Assembly (NCBI GenBank): GCA_030651475.1
Contig: JAUSEW010000021.1
Coordinates: 1,898 to 65,897, forward strand
DNA length: 64,000 nt
Origin: Candidatus Levyibacteriota bacterium
GTDB taxonomy: Bacteria; Patescibacteriota; Microgenomatia; Levybacterales; UBA12049
Reading direction: 5' to 3'
Shown here: positions 1,915-59,058 of the stretch, in pieces
How the letters are laid out: every line of letters begins with the position of its first letter
How positions within the stretch are numbered: the first letter of the stretch is position 1
The notes under the pieces: generated by a model
Told to the model about the DNA's origin: nothing
The model's input: only the letters and a program-made list of their open reading frames with translations
Databases searched by the model: none
Made by a program: the position numbers and the translations under genes

Positions 1915-4900
1915 CTACTTACTGTCTTTAAAGCTGGATTTTCCTATCATGTAAGTCTCTCCAATAGCTGATAACAATAAATAAAGAAGCAATCTAAATC
2001 CAAATCTTTTCGCAGTATCCCCGGCATTAACCTCTAAGAGATCTTCTAGATCATTGTAGAATTTATGCGATTTCTTTTCGTCTTTTTCAAGTTCTTCTCC
2101 CCACTCTTTAATTTTGTATTTTTTAAAGTCGTCCTCGGATGAATACTTTTTGGCTTCTTCCATATACTCTTCCGACAAGTCACTTTCTAAAAATGCTTTC
2201 GTTTTTTCTCGCATGTCTTCCCTTACTTTACTGATACTAGAAGACAGATATCCACGCAGATGATCAAGGTGCCCCCTTAATTCATCCCTGCTCATTGCCT
2301 TAGCTTGAGGTCCAAAGATTCTTTGAACATCAGATATCGAAACTCTACCCAAAGAAGTAGTTCCAATTATGTCCCACACCATATCCACTTTTGAAAGATT
2401 TAGAAATGTTCCTATTGTATACCTCAAACATTCAGCTTGACCTCTTGCACCAAGCCCATTATAAGATCCCGCAGAAGTAGCAAATTTTATAGCTGCGCCT
2501 GTTTTCTTTTCTATATCTTCATCTCTAATAAACTCAAGTAAAGAGTTCCCAGCCGTAGCTGCATTGCCAGTGTCATTCCATGACCTTGCCAAAGTGTCGC
2601 CGCCGGCGCCGGCTTCTCCAATCATCTTAGAAAGAGGAACATATCCAAGCTTGGATACTCCAAGCTCATCAACGCTGTCAAATTTTTCATCCTCCAATTT
2701 ATCCAGCAAAATATCGTCGATTATAATTGACCTTGTATATATATCTGCAAACTCATTATCTACTAACAAATCGTCTACGAGTTTCTTGTTGAAAATATAT
2801 TCCTGCATTTTTTTAGACAATTTTGCCAACATCTCCCCGCTCCCATTCCCTTTTATGCTATCTACCATTTTTTTCTGCTCAGTAGTCAAATCAGACAAAT
2901 TAATCTGTGTTGGTGTCTGATTGCCTTTTCCATCTTTAAGATCGAACCCTTCTTGTCTTAACAATCCAATTATTGACCCGTATTTTATTTTGAACTTATC
3001 GTAAACCGTAAGATCCCTTCCTCGCCCTCCATCTTCGCTTTCAGGTCTGTTAGCTTCCTTTTCTGTGACTGTGAGATTTAATTCGGGATCTATCCCAACC
3101 ATTTCATCGTATAGCGCCTTGACCCTGTCTCCTTTCCTTTCCCTAAATAACCTAATTATTTCTTCAGGTCTATAATTCTTAATCTTTCCCCATATTCCTT
3201 CTCGGGTTTTCCTTGTTTTATCATTCCCCTTCTCATCTTTTAAGGAAAGTTGATCTTGTCCGGAAAGCCTTAGCCTCATAAATAGAGCGAAATCTTCAGC
3301 TCTTTTTTTTGCCAAAAATATTTTCCTTCCCTGATCGGATTTTAATTGCTGATATTCCTTGAGCTCCTCCTTATTTAACAGCTCTTTATAAGGTTTTCCC
3401 TGAAAGGTCGAAGCTTCAAATCTTTGCTCCAATGCCTGAATTACTCCCTCTATGCGCCACCCAGAAGAGAAAAAGTCAGGAACAGCAAAGAGGTCTCTAA
3501 AAAGTCTTTTTCCCAAATCTATCTTTTGCTGTCTGGTAAGTTCTTTCCCGCTCTCTCCTTGAATCTTCTTTTGCTCTTTTAGATAGGTCTCCGCAATATC
3601 CAACTTTATTCTGTCAACAAATTCTTCCTGCTCAGGACTGTACATATCAAATTTCCCAAACAGCAACTCCTCCATATTGTAGACATTCAGCGGCCCTATT
3701 GGATCTGAGCGATAGCGACCGCCGTCTTTAAGTAAATATTTTCCCCTTGAAACTATAACGCCCATTCTTTGAGAAGAAACAAAAACATCATAAGCTGTTC
3801 TTACTATTCTAGTAATATCTCCATTTACTTTTTTTATCCTTTTTATCCTACCCAATCTTTCTAATTTCTTATTCGCCTCTGCCCTCTCGACATCTGTTAG
3901 TTTCCCAGCCAACGCCTCCCCTATTGTCTTTTCATCCCTCTTGATCTTTAAATCCGTCATCTCCTCATCTCGGGTTGCTGATATGAAATCAGCTTGATAC
4001 TCGGGCTTTTTCGCTATATTGCTTAGGTCATCAAAGCCTCCTTTTCCATTTTTTGCCAACTCCAACTGCTCCTCAATCAATGCTTTTTGTACTTTTAATG
4101 CGTCTTCAAGCATGACATGGTGCCTTTTGTTACTCCAAAGCCTAGTTCCTTCCAATAAATCTTGAAATCTGTTAAACATTGCCCCTACTTTACCTTGCTC
4201 CAATGCCATTCCCAATAATAGACCGTGTGCTCTAAGTTGCCCTGCCGCTCCCTTAACTTGCTCTAGGTCTTTGTACCCAATCGCCGTTCTCATTTGTAAA
4301 AGATGTAGGCGAACAGTCGACTCAGCGATAAAGGACTTTAAGTGCTCCGGATTAGAAGCATTAATAAGATCAATTGCATAAGATATTTTGTTTTGCGTAT
4401 TTTGAATCAGCGGTGAGCTTAGTTCCTGCCCCTCTTCGGCCAGCGCGTATACATGATCAAACTGCCCATTCAGCCATTCCATTGGCGTTGTCATAAGCGC
4501 ATCCATCTCCTCTTTCATAAGAGATAAGCCAAATCTGTAGGTTATATCCTGCTTTCCCTGAAATTTCGCCTGCGCCCTTTCCCCAATCTCTTTTTCCTCA
4601 ATTAGTCTTTTCTTAATTCTAGCTATGGCAATCTGCTTTTCGGCAGGATTAACACCTACGAGCTTACTGATGCTATTCAAAGCATCCAGGAACACATTCA
4701 AAGAAGGCTGTACTCCCACGTCAAGCGCATTATTCATTGCTTCCATTTCTGCAACAATTGCAGGATCACTAATTACTGCTTTATCAGCGGCATCTTCTGC
4801 TCCGGCAGGTGACACAGGAGGGGCTGGAGATTCTTCTGCACCAGGAGCATCTGCTCCCCCCATAATTGGACCAAGTCCTCTTTTGATCATTTCCCTTTTA

Positions 4901-5172
4901 ACATACTCCTCCTCAAAAGTAGGAGTTTTCCCTTTATTTGCTTCTTCCCAAGCTTTTCTAGCCACAGTTTGTCTTTCCGCAGAAACAGGTTTTTTCATGC
5001 CTGATCTTGAAGCTTGAGGGGCTTCGAAATTTGTTGGTTGTGAATTAGGAGGCGTATCGGATTTTCCTTCCATAAAAATCTTTCCATCCTTAGAATACCC
5101 TTCTCGTGCTTGTGTTGTCAACTCACGAGTTGATGCTGAGTTTTGTCGAAGCATCAAATCAAATTCTTTCAT
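1915..5172 (-). CDS. Large (1085 aa) charged/coiled-coil-rich hypothetical protein with a C-terminal hydrophobic tail anchor
   Basis: Long uninterrupted ORF, rich in K/E/D/R, with no N-terminal signal peptide. The last ~25 residues form a hydrophobic segment (FRLLLYLLLSAIGETYMI). It lies in an apparent operon with the AAA ATPase upstream. I recognise no motif. Confidence 0.55.
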   Translation of the reverse strand: MKEFDLMLRQNSASTRELTTQAREGYSKDGKIFMEGKSDTPPNSQPTNFEAPQASRSGMKKPVSAERQTVARKAWEEANKGKTPTFEEEYVKREMIKRGLGPIMGGADAPGAEESPAPPVSPAGAEDAADKAVISDPAIVAEMEAMNNALDVGVQPSLNVFLDALNSISKLVGVNPAEKQIAIARIKKRLIEEKEIGERAQAKFQGKQDITYRFGLSLMKEEMDALMTTPMEWLNGQFDHVYALAEEGQELSSPLIQNTQNKISYAIDLINASNPEHLKSFIAESTVRLHLLQMRTAIGYKDLEQVKGAAGQLRAHGLLLGMALEQGKVGAMFNRFQDLLEGTRLWSNKRHHVMLEDALKVQKALIEEQLELAKNGKGGFDDLSNIAKKPEYQADFISATRDEEMTDLKIKRDEKTIGEALAGKLTDVERAEANKKLERLGRIKRIKKVNGDITRIVRTAYDVFVSSQRMGVIVSRGKYLLKDGGRYRSDPIGPLNVYNMEELLFGKFDMYSPEQEEFVDRIKLDIAETYLKEQKKIQGESGKELTRQQKIDLGKRLFRDLFAVPDFFSSGWRIEGVIQALEQRFEASTFQGKPYKELLNKEELKEYQQLKSDQGRKIFLAKKRAEDFALFMRLRLSGQDQLSLKDEKGNDKTRKTREGIWGKIKNYRPEEIIRLFRERKGDRVKALYDEMVGIDPELNLTVTEKEANRPESEDGGRGRDLTVYDKFKIKYGSIIGLLRQEGFDLKDGKGNQTPTQINLSDLTTEQKKMVDSIKGNGSGEMLAKLSKKMQEYIFNKKLVDDLLVDNEFADIYTRSIIIDDILLDKLEDEKFDSVDELGVSKLGYVPLSKMIGEAGAGGDTLARSWNDTGNAATAGNSLLEFIRDEDIEKKTGAAIKFATSAGSYNGLGARGQAECLRYTIGTFLNLSKVDMVWDIIGTTSLGRVSISDVQRIFGPQAKAMSRDELRGHLDHLRGYLSSSISKVREDMREKTKAFLESDLSEEYMEEAKKYSSEDDFKKYKIKEWGEELEKDEKKSHKFYNDLEDLLEVNAGDTAKRFGFRLLLYLLLSAIGETYMIGKSSFKDSK

Positions 5173-6523: not shown

Positions 6524-7768
6524 GTGAGAAAGGTAATATTTTTATTTTCAAGCCTACTTATTTCCTTCTTATTCTTCGTATCGTGGAATAATAAAGCTTA
6601 TGCGGAGAATTGCCCTCTAAGTATTGATCGAACAACGCCATTCCCTCTTGATTTTAATGAGGACATAGTAATTAAAGGTAATTGTTTCACTAGCGGAAAA
6701 ACATACACTATCTTAGGATATCCTTCAAAGATAGACCCTTCTCCTGGAGAGTATTTTAAGTACTCCATAGATACAAGACAATATTCAGATCCAAATAGTA
6801 TTACCGCACGACTCAATCTGACAAAACCTACCTTTTACCCAATAGGTAGCCTTAATCCTGGACCGTGGATTATAAAAGTCTGCACTCAAGATGTTCTTCC
6901 CCAATGTGGAGAAACAGGTAGAATCGTAGGGACTATTAATATTAACGTTTCTGCAGTTTCTGCAGTTTCTGCACCTACTCCAACACCAATTCCATCGAAT
7001 TTACCAAAAGTTGCTATGTTTCCTTCACGATGTAAGTATCAATCTGATGAATCTTTAGAATTGACGCTCTCTGATCTTTTACCTAAAACTACATATCGTT
7101 GGTGGTGGTGGCAACCAGGAATCTTTCAAGGAGGAGATATAGCCGCAAGAGCATTTACTACATATCAACAGAACGGAACAGTGGCAAAAGCAACGATAGA
7201 AGGGAAAGAAACGCAACCAACTGGTAGCCGCACGCTTTGTGTTGATGTTGAAGGATTTGGCGTTGCTCGTTGTATTCCTGGTTCACAAAATTCAGCAACG
7301 CTACAATTTACGTTTGGTCCGCCGCCAGTTGATGGTTCTGCTTGTGTCACAACAGCAGCAGGAGGACAAGTTCCGCAGAATATACCTACTCCAACGCCCA
7401 TCATCCCAACACCTATATGCGCGAAGGGTGCCATAACTCCCATAAAAGAATCTGTAAATTCAACAAATGTTATTGGCTATACTTGTTCTGCCGTAGATAC
7501 TGGACTTGGCATTGATATCAAAACTAATCCCGAAGATTTGGTGAAGAGTGTTTTTGGAATAATTTTAAGCCTTTCCGGCGGAATTGCTTTAATTCTAATT
7601 ATTATTTCCGGCTATCAACTTATCTTTTCCCAGGGAAATCCCGAACAGGTTAAAGCAGCCCAAGAACAGCTGACTTCCGCAGTTGTCGGGCTTTTGTTTA
7701 TAATATTCTCATTGGTAATTCTACAAATAATCGGAGCAGACATTTTGAAAATCCCAGGCTTTAAGTGA
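6524..7768 (+). CDS. Secreted protein with C-terminal VirB2/TrbC-like pilin domain (pilin-ectodomain fusion)
   Basis: GTG start and a signal peptide. A ~330-aa Cys-containing N-terminal domain carries PTPTPIP linkers and a W-rich patch. The C-terminal ~70 aa (GIILSLSGGIALILIIISGYQLIFSQGNPEQVKAAQEQLTSAVVGLLFIIFSLVILQII) aligns with the four downstream pilin paralogs. Confidence 0.6.
   Translation: MRKVIFLFSSLLISFLFFVSWNNKAYAENCPLSIDRTTPFPLDFNEDIVIKGNCFTSGKTYTILGYPSKIDPSPGEYFKYSIDTRQYSDPNSITARLNLTKPTFYPIGSLNPGPWIIKVCTQDVLPQCGETGRIVGTININVSAVSAVSAPTPTPIPSNLPKVAMFPSRCKYQSDESLELTLSDLLPKTTYRWWWWQPGIFQGGDIAARAFTTYQQNGTVAKATIEGKETQPTGSRTLCVDVEGFGVARCIPGSQNSATLQFTFGPPPVDGSACVTTAAGGQVPQNIPTPTPIIPTPICAKGAITPIKESVNSTNVIGYTCSAVDTGLGIDIKTNPEDLVKSVFGIILSLSGGIALILIIISGYQLIFSQGNPEQVKAAQEQLTSAVVGLLFIIFSLVILQIIGADILKIPGFK
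6947..6973 (+). repeat. In-frame tandem repeat (GTTTCTGCA)x3 encoding VSAVSAVSA inside ORF 6524-7768
   Basis: Three exact 9-bp units seen directly. Confidence 0.9.
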
Positions 7769-7775
7769 CAACTAT

Positions 7776-7799
7776 AGCGTTTAGTTAGGGAGCGTTTAG
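7776..7799. repeat. Two direct copies of AGCGTTTAG (left arm of the inverted repeat flanking the four-helix-bundle gene)
   Basis: AGCGTTTAG lies at 7776-7784 and 7791-7799. Its reverse complement CTAAACGCT occurs twice on the other side of the gene (8189-8197 and 8212-8220). Confidence 0.7.
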
Positions 7800-7830
7800 C
7801 GGATAGTTGGGGAGCTCTTAATGTCTAGTT

Positions 7831-8199
7831 ATGGCGTATATAGCAACTTACAAAGAATTAATTGTATGGAAAAAGGCAATTGAATTAGTAAAAGAAATTT
7901 ATCTTTTGACAGAAAAATTTCCCAGATCGGAGATTTACGGAATAATTTCCCAAATGCGGCGAGCGGCTGTATCTATCCCTTCAAATATTGCCGAAGGTTA
8001 CGGGAGAAAATCCCCCAAAGAATATGCGCAATTTTATTCCATAGCCTACGGTTCTGGTCTTGAGCTTGAAACACAACTTATTATTAGCAAAGACCTTAAG
8101 TTCGTTAAATTACAAGATTTTACAAAAAGCGATAATCTATTAACAGAGGTCTTAAAAATGTTACGCTCAATGTTGTATACTATGAGAACTAAACGCTAG
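7831..8199 (+). CDS. Four-helix-bundle protein (23S rRNA intervening-sequence protein family, PF05635-like)
   Basis: 122 aa. The sequence ...ELIVWKKAIELVKEIYLLTEKFPRSEIYGIISQMRRAAVSIPSNIAEGYGRKSPKEYAQFYSIAYGSGLELETQL... matches the characteristic family motif. Confidence 0.85.
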   Translation: MAYIATYKELIVWKKAIELVKEIYLLTEKFPRSEIYGIISQMRRAAVSIPSNIAEGYGRKSPKEYAQFYSIAYGSGLELETQLIISKDLKFVKLQDFTKSDNLLTEVLKMLRSMLYTMRTKR

Positions 8200-8220
8200 A
8201 CGCTTAGAAAACTAAACGCT
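8189..8220. repeat. Two copies of CTAAACGCT (right arm, reverse complement of the left arm)
   Basis: Seen directly at 8189-8197 (overlapping the stop codon) and 8212-8220. Together with 7776-7799 they bracket a 445-bp cassette. Confidence 0.7.
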
Positions 8221-8224
8221 AATT

Positions 8225-8569
8225 ATGAAGCTTGCACAATTTTCCTTACCAGGTTACCCAGATATAAAAGTTCCGAGCGATATACAAAATTTATCAGGAG
8301 GAGCTTATGGCGGCAGTTTAATTACAACAGCCCTGGCTATCCTTTTTGTTTTTGGAATTGTTTTGACAATTATTCTTCTAATCTATTCCGGCATCCAATG
8401 GGTCACATCCGAAGGAGACAAACAGAAGATACAGGCCGCACGATCAAGGCTTATTTATACGATAGTTGGATTTTTGATAATTGCCGGTTCACTTGTTATT
8501 GTAAGTGTAATCGTAAGATTACTTGGCGGAGATCCTAAATTTTTCTTAAATACCTCAAATACCCCTTGA
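8225..8569 (+). CDS. VirB2/TrbC-like T4SS pilin paralog
   Basis: Small protein with a TM helix followed by IYSGIQWVTSEGDKQKIQAARSRLIYTIVGFLIIAGSLVIV. The motif is shared with ORFs 8602, 9068, 9578 and the C-terminus of 6524. Confidence 0.6.
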   Translation: MKLAQFSLPGYPDIKVPSDIQNLSGGAYGGSLITTALAILFVFGIVLTIILLIYSGIQWVTSEGDKQKIQAARSRLIYTIVGFLIIAGSLVIVSVIVRLLGGDPKFFLNTSNTP

Positions 8570-27917: not shown

Positions 27918-28415
27918 ATGAGAATACTTGGGATTGATCCGGGAATTGCAAGGTGCGGGTGGTCAATAGTTCAAAGTGAAAAGTTCAAAGTGAAAAGCTT
28001 AAACTACGGGTGCGTGGAGACGAAGAATGGTTTGCCGATTGAATTAAGATTAAAAACAGTTTACGAGCAAATTACAGAAATTATTGAAAAAGAAAAACCC
28101 GACGTTTTGGCAATAGAGGAGTTGTTTTTTAATACCAATGCGAAAACAGCTTTTATGGTAGGACAGGCAAGGGGAGTGGTTCTTTTAACAGCTGCTCAAA
28201 ATAAAATTCCCGTTGCAATTTATACTCCTTTGCAAGTTAAAGTAGCGGTAACAGGATATGGAAAAGCGGAAAAAATTCAGGTTGGGAAGATGGTAAAAGC
28301 TTTATTAAAGCTTAAGGAAATTCCCAAGCCCGATGACGTGACAGATGCATTGGCAATCGCCCTCACCCACGCCTTCTCAAGTAAATTCAATTCTATAAAA
28401 CAACCTTCTTTTTGA
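27918..28415 (+). CDS. ruvC: Holliday junction resolvase RuvC
   Basis: MRILGIDPGIARCGWSIV...EELFFNTNAKTA...VTGYGKAEKIQV...DALAIAL carries the RuvC catalytic pattern. Confidence 0.85.
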   Translation: MRILGIDPGIARCGWSIVQSEKFKVKSLNYGCVETKNGLPIELRLKTVYEQITEIIEKEKPDVLAIEELFFNTNAKTAFMVGQARGVVLLTAAQNKIPVAIYTPLQVKVAVTGYGKAEKIQVGKMVKALLKLKEIPKPDDVTDALAIALTHAFSSKFNSIKQPSF

Positions 28416-58295: not shown

Positions 58296-58374
58296 TTCAA
58301 AGTTCAAAGTGCAAAGTTAAAAGTTAGTTAAAATTTTTCACTTTTCACTTTTAATTTTTAATTTATTGAGATCT

Positions 58375-58495
58375 GTATGTAGGTAAACATCGTGAAAGTC
58401 GATGGAAGAGCCGCTACTGTAATATCCAGAAAACTACATACACGAAGGTTTCCCGAGCTGGAGTTTTTTTGTTATCCTCTGGAGACCTTCAGTAT
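58375..58495 (+). ncRNA. Candidate cobalamin-riboswitch-like leader upstream of the adenosyltransferase gene
   Basis: 8-bp helix GTATGTAG (58375-58382) / CTACATAC (58434-58441) encloses a hairpin CATCG-TGAAAGT-CGATG (GGTGAAA.TCC-like P3 loop). GCCGCTACTGTAAT follows (compare riboswitch CCGCCACTGTAAT). Downstream CTCTGGAGACCTTCAG resembles the B12 box (AGGAGACCTGCC) just before the RBS of the PduO-type gene. Confidence 0.3.
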
Positions 58496-58509
58496 TTTTA
58501 TTTAATAAT

Positions 58510-59058
58510 ATGCCGATTTATACGCGGACAGGGGATAAAGGATATACCTCTTTTTTTAATGGCCAGAGGATTTCAAAATCAGATTCAAGAGTGGATGTTT
58601 ATGGGACGATTGATGAGCTTAATTCGGCAATTGGTATGGCGATTGCTGAATTAATAAGGATTAAGGATAAAGGATTAAGTATTAAAAGTGAATTGGAACG
58701 GATTCAGAATGATTTGCTGGATATTGGATCTGCGTTAGCAAATCCAGCCTCAAAACCTTTAAATTATTTGGAAAAGAGAGTGAAGGAATTCGAGGATTTT
58801 ATAGACCAAATGACCAAGCAAATGCCGATTTTGAAAAATTTCATCTTACCCGGCGGAGGGAAAACCGGCGCCTTACTTCATTTCGCCAGAACGGTTTGTA
58901 GGAGAGCGGAAAGAAATTTGGTCAAACTATCGGAAAACGGAAAAATAGATAACAATATAATCATTTATATAAATAGACTTTCGGACTTGCTTTTTACCAT
59001 GGCTCGCTTTGCAAATTTTAAAGAAAAGAAAAAAGAAATAATTTGGTTCAAAAAATAA
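58510..59058 (+). CDS. PduO-type ATP:cob(I)alamin adenosyltransferase
   Basis: MPIYTRTGDKGYTSFFNGQRISKSDSRVDVYGTIDELNSAIG is the hallmark N-terminus of the PduO/MMAB family. Confidence 0.85.
   Translation: MPIYTRTGDKGYTSFFNGQRISKSDSRVDVYGTIDELNSAIGMAIAELIRIKDKGLSIKSELERIQNDLLDIGSALANPASKPLNYLEKRVKEFEDFIDQMTKQMPILKNFILPGGGKTGALLHFARTVCRRAERNLVKLSENGKIDNNIIIYINRLSDLLFTMARFANFKEKKKEIIWFKK

Follow-up and report, generated by a model that had tools for sequence, protein, structure and literature searches.

An IVP gene enclosed by heptamer arms

The 64,000-nucleotide stretch analyzed here (contig JAUSEW010000021.1 of a Candidatus Levyibacteriota bacterium), referred to below as the window, carries between two pilin genes a gene for an intervening sequence (IVS) protein, or IVP, that is enclosed by inverted arrays of short tandem repeats. 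The IVP gene (7831..8199, + strand, stop codon TAG) encodes a basic protein of 122 aa (pI 9.6). An earlier note, made from the sequence alone, had described it as a 122-aa four-helix-bundle gene of the "23S rRNA IVS protein" type, and profile and structure comparisons agree: the product matches PF05635 (23S_rRNA_IVP) with E=1.9e-39 and 134.6 bits against a cut-off of 33.8, exceeds the cut-offs of the NCBIfam models TIGR02436 (124 vs 24) and NF008911 (145.6 vs 137), and is predicted by AlphaFold to form, as a monomer, four helices at residues 7-27, 36-57, 62-89 and 94-121 (pLDDT 91.7). The nearest solved structures are 2GSC (Xcc0516) and 2RLD (BT_0352), with the Avd pentamer next; Foldseek aligns the IVP to 2GSC at 44% identity with a TM-score of 0.80-0.87 and a root-mean-square deviation of 1.5 Å.

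The family motif GxxRxxxSxxxNxxE, which is reportedly credited to Lin 2006 as well, is represented in the IVP by R44, S48, N52 and E55, with Q41 instead of G at the first position; Q41 is invariant within the subfamily of this protein. Our source for the motif is Zhang & Ye 2013 (PMC3936711). The database protein closest to the IVP comes from a metagenome-assembled genome (MAG) of Candidatus Levybacteria. No second IVP gene was found in the window, and no IVP homolog was found in the phage collection.

The gene forms the core of a 447-bp cassette (7775..8221, + strand) composed of a 5′ arm, a spacer, the IVP open reading frame (ORF) and a 3′ arm. The 5′ arm (7775..7808, + strand) consists of degenerate tandem heptamers (TAGCGTT TAGTTAG GGAGCGT TTAGCGG ATAGTTG) with helix segments at 7775-7786, 7790-7801 and 7804-7808, and the spacer between it and the start codon (7809..7830, + strand) holds GGGGAG and ends in CTAGTT. 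CTAGTT stands directly 5′ of the ATG in orthologous cassettes too; the spacer is missing from the orthologs at L081 and L083 (L numbers designate the loci compared). The 3′ arm (8184..8221, + strand) carries the reverse-complement heptamers as two copies of AACTAAACGCTA (8187-8198 and 8210-8221) with a degenerate copy between them; its overlap with the IVP ORF takes in the five final codons and the stop, and the arm ends 3 nt before the ATG of the downstream pilin gene. The nonamer AGCGTTTAG occurs on the + strand at 7776-7784 and 7791-7799, the first copy being extended to the 12-nt TAGCGTTTAGTT at 7775-7786, and its reverse complement occurs at 8189-8197 and 8212-8220. These are exactly the positions given in the earlier note, which had placed both inverted copies downstream of the gene; this holds for 8212-8220 and not for 8189-8197, which overlaps the last codons and the TAG of 7831-8199.

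AGCGTTTAG is not a common motif of the window, a possibility that the earlier note had raised for the whole genome: counting its reverse complement there are 5 matches against 0.31 expected, a count reached by 0 of 100 shuffles, and the fifth match (46703) lies within an unrelated coding sequence. The arm 12-mer with up to 2 mismatches allowed shows no further enrichment in the 64 kb, the exact arm pair has 0 matches across the 185,579 genomes scanned, and the arms are private to the source lineage. TAG is present in all three frames of the 5′ arm, and likewise in the 3′ arm on the minus strand. The arms are the only repeats found around the IVP gene, and no promoter-like or terminator-like site of note, including a T-run terminator, is seen in or adjoining the cassette.

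The upstream neighbor, pilin1 (6524..7768, + strand, 414 aa), has a C-terminal T4SS_pilin domain (PF18895, E=1.7e-8), and its TGA stop (7766-7768) lies 6 nt ahead of the cassette; the downstream neighbor, pilin2 (8225..8569, + strand, 114 aa), is a T4SS_pilin protein as well. The earlier note had correctly taken both neighbors for pilins, and their identity is now refined to type IV secretion pilins (PF18895) rather than type IV pili. They belong to an operon resembling that of a type IV secretion system (T4SS), with PrgI-like and VirB4-like genes.

Predicted fold of the transcript

Folding of the transcript was the first check suggested for the inverted repeats, and in the structure predicted for 7765-8230 the arms do pair and close the whole ORF (z=-4.5). 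The arm duplex is composed of 12 bp, an internal loop, 12 bp, a second internal loop and 5 bp (-42 kcal/mol), so that an interrupted helix of ~29 bp in total encloses the IVP ORF, while each arm on its own folds poorly (5′ arm z=-0.5, 3′ arm z=-1.1). A helix of this predicted length is compatible with a substrate of RNase III.

Architecture around homologous IVP genes

The same arrangement was examined at 80 genomic loci encoding relatives of the IVP from Patescibacteria, Bacteroidota, Acidobacteriota, Omnitrophota, Planctomycetota, Verrucomicrobiota, Atribacterota and other phyla. The flank inverted-repeat score is 10 or more for 66/83 IVP genes against 14/307 control ORFs (p=7e-33), and at least 20 closing base pairs in the minimum free energy (MFE) fold are found for 73/87 cassettes (84%) against 17/174 length-matched control segments (10%), the median cassette having 30 closing base pairs (n=87). 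The 42 nt upstream contain a stop in every frame for 54/88 IVP genes and 45/312 controls. The best arm period is 7 in 49/88 and 8 in 17/88 cases (66/88 together). The architecture is not an artefact of MAGs, because it is also present in finished Nostoc and Picosynechococcus plasmids.

The arm units vary from locus to locus (TAGCGnn, TAGGGnn, TAGCCAA, GTTGACAA, AAGGCACA, CAAGGnTT and others), yet within each cassette the two arms stay complementary despite this divergence. Arm similarity tracks protein identity, yet the arms decay far more quickly, with arm words common to just 17% of the protein pairs at 60-70% identity; the unit classes TAGCGnn and TAGGGnn recur across phyla, and cassettes of one genome carry different arms (L018, L028 and L041). 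At L003 (2900-3000) and L004 (2895-3000) an extra arm with its complement forms an ORF-less hairpin of the same unit directly before the cassette. A strong period-7 array is also seen within 42 nt upstream of 17/312 control ORFs (loci L001-L085); these arrays may be ORF-less arms or flanks of unmasked divergent PF05635 genes.

Operon junctions as host sites

The IVP genes lie in the direction of their surroundings: both neighbors are co-oriented with the IVP gene in 65/80 cases, compared with 92/167 for other genes of the same loci (p=6.5e-5). The geometry was measured on 51 cassettes from exact complementary blocks, as the outermost pairs of the MFE folds spill weakly into the coding flanks. 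The median distance from the upstream host stop to the 5′ arm is 1 nt (the stop is overlapped in 21/51), from the end of the 5′ arm to the IVP ATG 6 nt, from the IVP stop to the start of the 3′ arm ~1 nt, and from the end of the 3′ arm to the downstream host start 9 nt; the corresponding values in the window are 6 nt, 22 nt, an overlap and 3 nt.

Several host junctions confirmed by Pfam recur. sdhA|sdhB is occupied in 14 Bacteroidota loci, transketolase N|C and rpiB|rpe are occupied in the candidate phyla radiation (CPR), and further hosts are T4SS pilin operons of Microgenomates and cmr2|cmr3 of a cyanobacterium. The sdhA|sdhB cassettes, between the genes for the flavoprotein and iron-sulfur subunits of succinate dehydrogenase/fumarate reductase (L013, L029, L033, L034, L042, L044, L045, L048, L053, L054, L056, L063, L064 and L076), are carried by Bacteroides, Prevotella, Paludibacter, Parabacteroides, Flavobacteriaceae and Polaribacter; their arm units differ by lineage (GTTGACAA, TAGGCAA and AGTTTTTA), and their proteins form one group. 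They are coherent, with 14/14 nearest neighbors within the group, indicating long vertical retention.

The cyanobacterial cassette at L091 (1489-1845) has AGGAGATA arms with 43 closing base pairs and separates cas10/cmr2 from cmr3 in a type III-B CRISPR operon. A survey of 2013 found IVP genes within cas operons, cmr2|cmr3 among them, and interpreted this as functional association, with no mention of flanking repeats (PMC3936711); a comparable cas-operon case is known from Pleurocapsa (PMC3936711). These cas-operon IVP genes may simply be junction cassettes.

Plasmids of Nostoc provide three further cases. At L086 (1495-1863, Nostoc edaphicum) the cassette lies between ribonucleotide reductase subunit genes on the opposite strand, with AGTAGGG ~9 times upstream and TCCCTAC 4 times downstream. 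At L087 (1504-1854) and L088 (1498-1848), on plasmids gamma and alpha of Nostoc PCC 7120, respectively, an identical IVP (WP_010994075.1) stands beside insertion sequence (IS) transposases, and only the 3′ heptamer arm is intact (CTTCTGC/CCTCTGC), the 5′ side being replaced. The 11-nt repeat ACTTCAAACTT precedes the ATG in L087 and in L090 of Stanieria, and not in L088.

Insertion, loss and exchange at the pilin junction

Relatives of the host junction were collected by a metagenome search with the C-terminus of pilin1, whose last 80 aa are kept in relatives, the N-terminal part being highly variable among them. The search gave 69 informative pilin1 junctions, at which IVP presence was called by an A1-based hidden Markov model (HMM) within 350 nt. 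An IVP gene is present at at least 10/69 junctions, a lower bound given that the divergent IVP of L126 is missed by the HMM. At the 59/69 junctions without an HMM-detected IVP (L126 included) the next ORF follows after a median of 4 nt, often with an ATGA overlap, and junctions without an IVP have neither a hairpin nor a cassette remnant; in the cassette-free relatives the pilin2 ATG abuts or overlaps the pilin1 stop. Since the junction is usually tight and free of hairpins in related Microgenomates, the arms belong to the cassette, and 7775-8221 is the inserted unit. We also considered whether the arms are pre-existing host hairpins with an ORF inserted into the loop; this was rejected, as the empty junctions are hairpin-free and the arms co-vary with the protein.

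At L008, pilin1 and pilin2 are 2 nt apart and cassettes occupy other junctions of the operon. Three PF05635 genes (81-437, 3001-3387 and 4686-5057) are found in this one T4SS-like operon, located before pilin1, at the last pilin/PrgI junction and after PrgI. The MAG is labelled "Gammaproteobacteria", but the operon is of the Microgenomates type and the label is probably wrong.

Four related assemblies have an ortholog of the IVP (77-81% identity) in the same pilin1|pilin2 slot. The contigs of L081 and L082, two independent assemblies, end ~150 nt past the cassette; these breaks may have arisen during assembly, through the repeats or through differences between strains at this junction. The closest relative, L094 (pilin1 C-terminus 92% identical), has a different IVP in the same slot: it is 50% identical over 94 residues to that of the window, its nearest relative is L120 (84%), and its arms are heptamers of the ATGAATC type. 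Nucleotide identity between the window and L094 falls to 52% within the cassette, compared with 84% in the flank to its left and 86% in that to its right. More generally, the phylogeny of the IVP is partly decoupled from the slot, L028b, L094 and L161 differing from the IVP of the window. The suggestion that the cassette is mobile, made earlier from its repeats, thus gains comparative support from its presence at some junctions, the tightness of the rest and the swap in L094, and these sequence comparisons clearly point to a cassette that is gained, lost and swapped as one piece.

Proposed mechanism and alternatives

Taking the anatomy of the cassettes, their generality, helix geometry and co-orientation together with their insertion and swap at the pilin junction, we think it reasonably probable that 7775-8221 is an IVS-type gene cassette residing in an mRNA operon, that it is co-transcribed with its host genes, and that its helix is a likely substrate of RNase III. 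The cassette is probably part of the operon mRNA, because it has no recognizable promoter or terminator and follows the direction of the operon. It would have been inserted as one piece into a tight, translationally coupled pilin1-pilin2 junction. Arms built of direct repeats would avoid folding on themselves, tolerate shifts of register and zip into the interrupted helix of ~29 bp, which would loop out the ORF and let the stop and start codons of the host meet at its base; a role of the helix in preserving the coupling of the two genes is presumed, as is a function of the protein. By analogy with the IVSs of rRNA the helix would most likely be cut by RNase III, the insertion then being cut out of the host transcript at the RNA level or insulated from it. 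The all-frame stops in the arms would block host and antisense translation from entering the cassette.

Several points weigh against this proposal. Roughly 15-20% of IVP genes have no clear arms, and some are antisense to their neighbors (L086). The variable position of the unit is often mismatched and uncompensated in L081 and L083. Arm mismatches comprise 52 G-T and 61 A-C pairs, and with no excess of G-U nothing assigns the constraint to the sense RNA in preference to DNA or both strands. The step of insertion at the DNA level is left unexplained by the model, and the authors of the Coxiella work consider the S23p protein untranslated there (PMC4990558).

The absence of a G-U over A-C bias would also be expected if the arms acted at the DNA level only, as terminal inverted repeats or as a hairpin or cruciform of single-stranded DNA recognized by a recombinase or transposase supplied in trans; the cassette would then be a non-autonomous mobile element and its RNA stem a by-product. 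Gain, loss and swap with boundaries exactly at the arm ends fit such an element, as do the decoupling of the IVP phylogeny from the slot in L028b, L094 and L161 and the location of some cyanobacterial copies beside IS transposases. However, neither a transposase nor an integrase is located within the cassettes or close to them, a target-site duplication cannot be seen, the arms differ within one genome (L018, L028 and L041), and the arms of the window have neither extra copies in the 64 kb nor an arm-pair match in the 185,579 genomes. The sense co-orientation and the exact fit of the helix between stop and start codons are not predicted by an action on DNA, and rRNA IVSs of the same anatomy are processed as RNA; we regard this alternative as rather unlikely.

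The tandem units could instead be iteron-like binding sites for an IVP pentamer on DNA or RNA, serving autoregulation or ribonucleoprotein assembly, with the complementarity of the arms being secondary. Short tandem repeats are typical of protein-binding arrays, the IVP is basic (pI 9.6) and shares its fold with Avd, a pentamer that binds RNA and reverse transcriptase (RT), arm sequence correlates with protein similarity, and TAGCGnn and TAGGGnn recur across phyla. Set against this, the arms diverge fully among proteins of 60-70% identity (17% of pairs have common words), the conserved motif residues are invariant while the arms diverge, and the inverse orientation, the equal register and the helices of 20-40 bp are explained by pairing rather than by binding; we regard this explanation as quite improbable. 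It is scarcely credible that the repeats arose by chance or through low sequence complexity in an AT-rich intergenic region, or that they are ordinary hairpins, of the terminator kind or similar to repetitive extragenic palindromes (REPs), with no relation to the gene: other period-7 arrays in the window, the ORF-less heptamer hairpin behind a ribonucleotide reductase gene and the 17 control ORFs with strong upstream period-7 arrays would suit it, but the motif stands 16-fold above expectation, same-locus controls are far weaker, the empty junctions are hairpin-free and there is no T-run terminator.

The comparative evidence favors the IVS-type cassette in operon mRNA and suggests that life at junctions may be general for the PF05635 family. 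Since the early 1990s no explanation has been available for the rRNA IVSs and the ORF conserved in them, and the protein continues to be listed as uncharacterized. The same unit of an ORF in a heptamer stem stands at protein-operon junctions of many phyla, between the stop and start codons of hosts that include succinate dehydrogenase, transketolase, type III CRISPR and T4SS-like operons, turning what looked like an rRNA oddity into what may be a general insertion cassette that can be tolerated inside transcripts. Nostoc, Picosynechococcus and Bacteroides offer test beds for this old question, cultured carriers being Nostoc punctiforme PCC 73102 (plasmid pNPUN02, NPUN_RS35280), Picosynechococcus PCC 7003 (cmr2-IVP-cmr3) and Bacteroides caecigallinarum (sdhA-IVP-sdhB), and IVP genes in cas and metabolic operons should not be taken as functional partners of their neighbors.

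A more far-reaching idea, which we consider unlikely, is that PF05635 cassettes are widespread mobile elements of operon junctions and that the rRNA IVSs are the subset that landed in rRNA. If so, an Avd-like pentamer and the released stem-closed RNA would mediate their own spread, via reverse transcription with an RT supplied in trans or via targeting of stop/start junctions, and decayed ORF-less copies would explain the hairpins of the cyanobacterial short tandemly repeated repetitive (STRR) type and of the Xanthomonas GGGAATC pairs.

Surroundings of the cassette in the window

The host operon is chromosomal, because dnaN, dnaA, rnpA and yidC lie 6-10 kb away, and a Shine-Dalgarno sequence is missing from most of its genes. 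The N-terminal extension of pilin1 (~330 aa) has a Pro/Thr-rich linker and a WWWW run, followed by the T4SS_pilin domain. No Rfam family reaches its gathering score in the 64 kb, and neither rRNA nor tRNA is found there. No RT domain is present in the scanned ORFs from 187 to 23217, the one related match being RNase H, and no part of a diversity-generating retroelement (DGR), be it an RT, template and variable repeats (TR/VR) or another component, lies within ~6 kb of the IVP gene. There is no transposase in or near the cassette of the window and no visible target-site duplication at its boundaries.

A heptamer hairpin without an ORF is located at 58296-58362, starting from the TAG stop of a ribonucleotide reductase gene. 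Its units are AGTTCAA AGTTCAA AGTGCAA AGTTAAA ... TTTTCAC TTTTCAC TTTTAAT, forming 28 bp with a mismatch at each seventh position (z=-2.2). T-rich sequence comes next, and the hairpin may either serve as a terminator or be related, without an ORF, to the arms of the cassette. A leader of ~145 nt (58365-58509) then precedes the cobalamin adenosyltransferase gene (58510-59058); no Rfam family matches this leader at the gathering score, and it could be a divergent form of a leader related to cobalamin. A perfect 14-nt repeat in ruvC (27968-27997), akin to the unit of this solo hairpin, was rejected as ordinary coding sequence.

Comparison with known systems

The closest parallel is the IVS of rRNA, as the earlier note had proposed from the stem-flanked layout, and the 23S IVS of Coxiella burnetii matches the cassette in its stem, its heptamers and the enclosed S23p ORF. 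Located in helix 45, it measures 428 nt, with a 28-bp stem of terminal inverted repeats, the S23p ORF in the loop and tandem GACAGAT heptamers of variable copy number at the ORF start, and its stem is cleaved by RNase III in vitro (PMC4990558). CPR bacteria likewise have IVP ORFs within 16S and 23S insertions, and the domain was described there as functionally uncharacterized (PMC11270868). The rRNA IVSs (Coxiella, Leptospira, Brucella, Xanthomonas and CPR) thus have in common with the cassette the protein family, a sense-oriented ORF in a stem of terminal inverted repeats with heptamers at its start, and a length of about 430-450 nt. They differ in the host, which is a 23S (helix 25 or 45) or 16S gene rather than a junction of a protein-coding operon, and in the fit of the helix, which continues an rRNA helix instead of abutting host stop and start codons; excision by RNase III is established for the rRNA IVSs and for the cassette is suggested by analogy. 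In the literature searched we found no description of stem-bracketed IVP architecture outside rRNA, although the curators of TIGR02436 may have noted the repeats.

Among proteins, Xcc0516 (2GSC) and BT_0352 (2RLD) are structural-genomics members of the "S23 ribosomal protein" family that have no assigned function and possess the same RxxxSxxxNxxE motif as the IVP. 2GSC is a homopentamer (PMC4990558), and the 2RLD structure has five chains (A-E). The Avd protein of DGRs (bAvd; 4DWL and 8UB7) has the same four-helix-bundle fold (TM 0.75-0.84), but only 10-14% identity to the IVP, and the Avd models score the IVP far below their cut-offs (NF033474, 20.4 vs 80; PF22296, 22.8 vs 40). Avd is a basic pentamer that holds the RT and a structured RNA, and among Pfam families PF05635 is the most frequent marker of Avd-like genes in DGRs (PMC10053308).

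Two classes of mobile DNA share parts of the layout. REP elements with their REP-associated tyrosine transposases (RAYTs), including REPINs, and elements resembling miniature inverted-repeat transposable elements likewise have one small gene between short hairpin-forming inverted repeats; however, RAYTs belong to the HUH transposases and hundreds of REP copies are dispersed, whereas the IVP has no nuclease fold and its arms are private. Integron cassettes are likewise promoterless single genes in the direction of host transcription with imperfect inverted repeats and exchange in a fixed slot, but attC stands at the 3′ end only, whereas the IVP cassette has heptamer arms on both sides and a cargo that is always of the same family. 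The flanks examined showed neither an integrase nor attI, for which no systematic search was made.

The arms themselves resemble the intergenic tandem heptamers of Xanthomonas and Nostoc and the STRR repeats of cyanobacteria. The heptamers GGGAATC and GGGGA(C/T)T of Xanthomonas and Nostoc are intergenic, often arranged as convergent stem-loop pairs, mostly transcribed and conserved in position, and were described with no mention of IVP genes (Rehm et al. 2015, PMC4692102). Xanthomonas and Nostoc are both rich in PF05635 genes, and IVP genes of Nostoc are flanked by such heptamers; the cassettes are a candidate origin of these heptamer-repeat hairpins.

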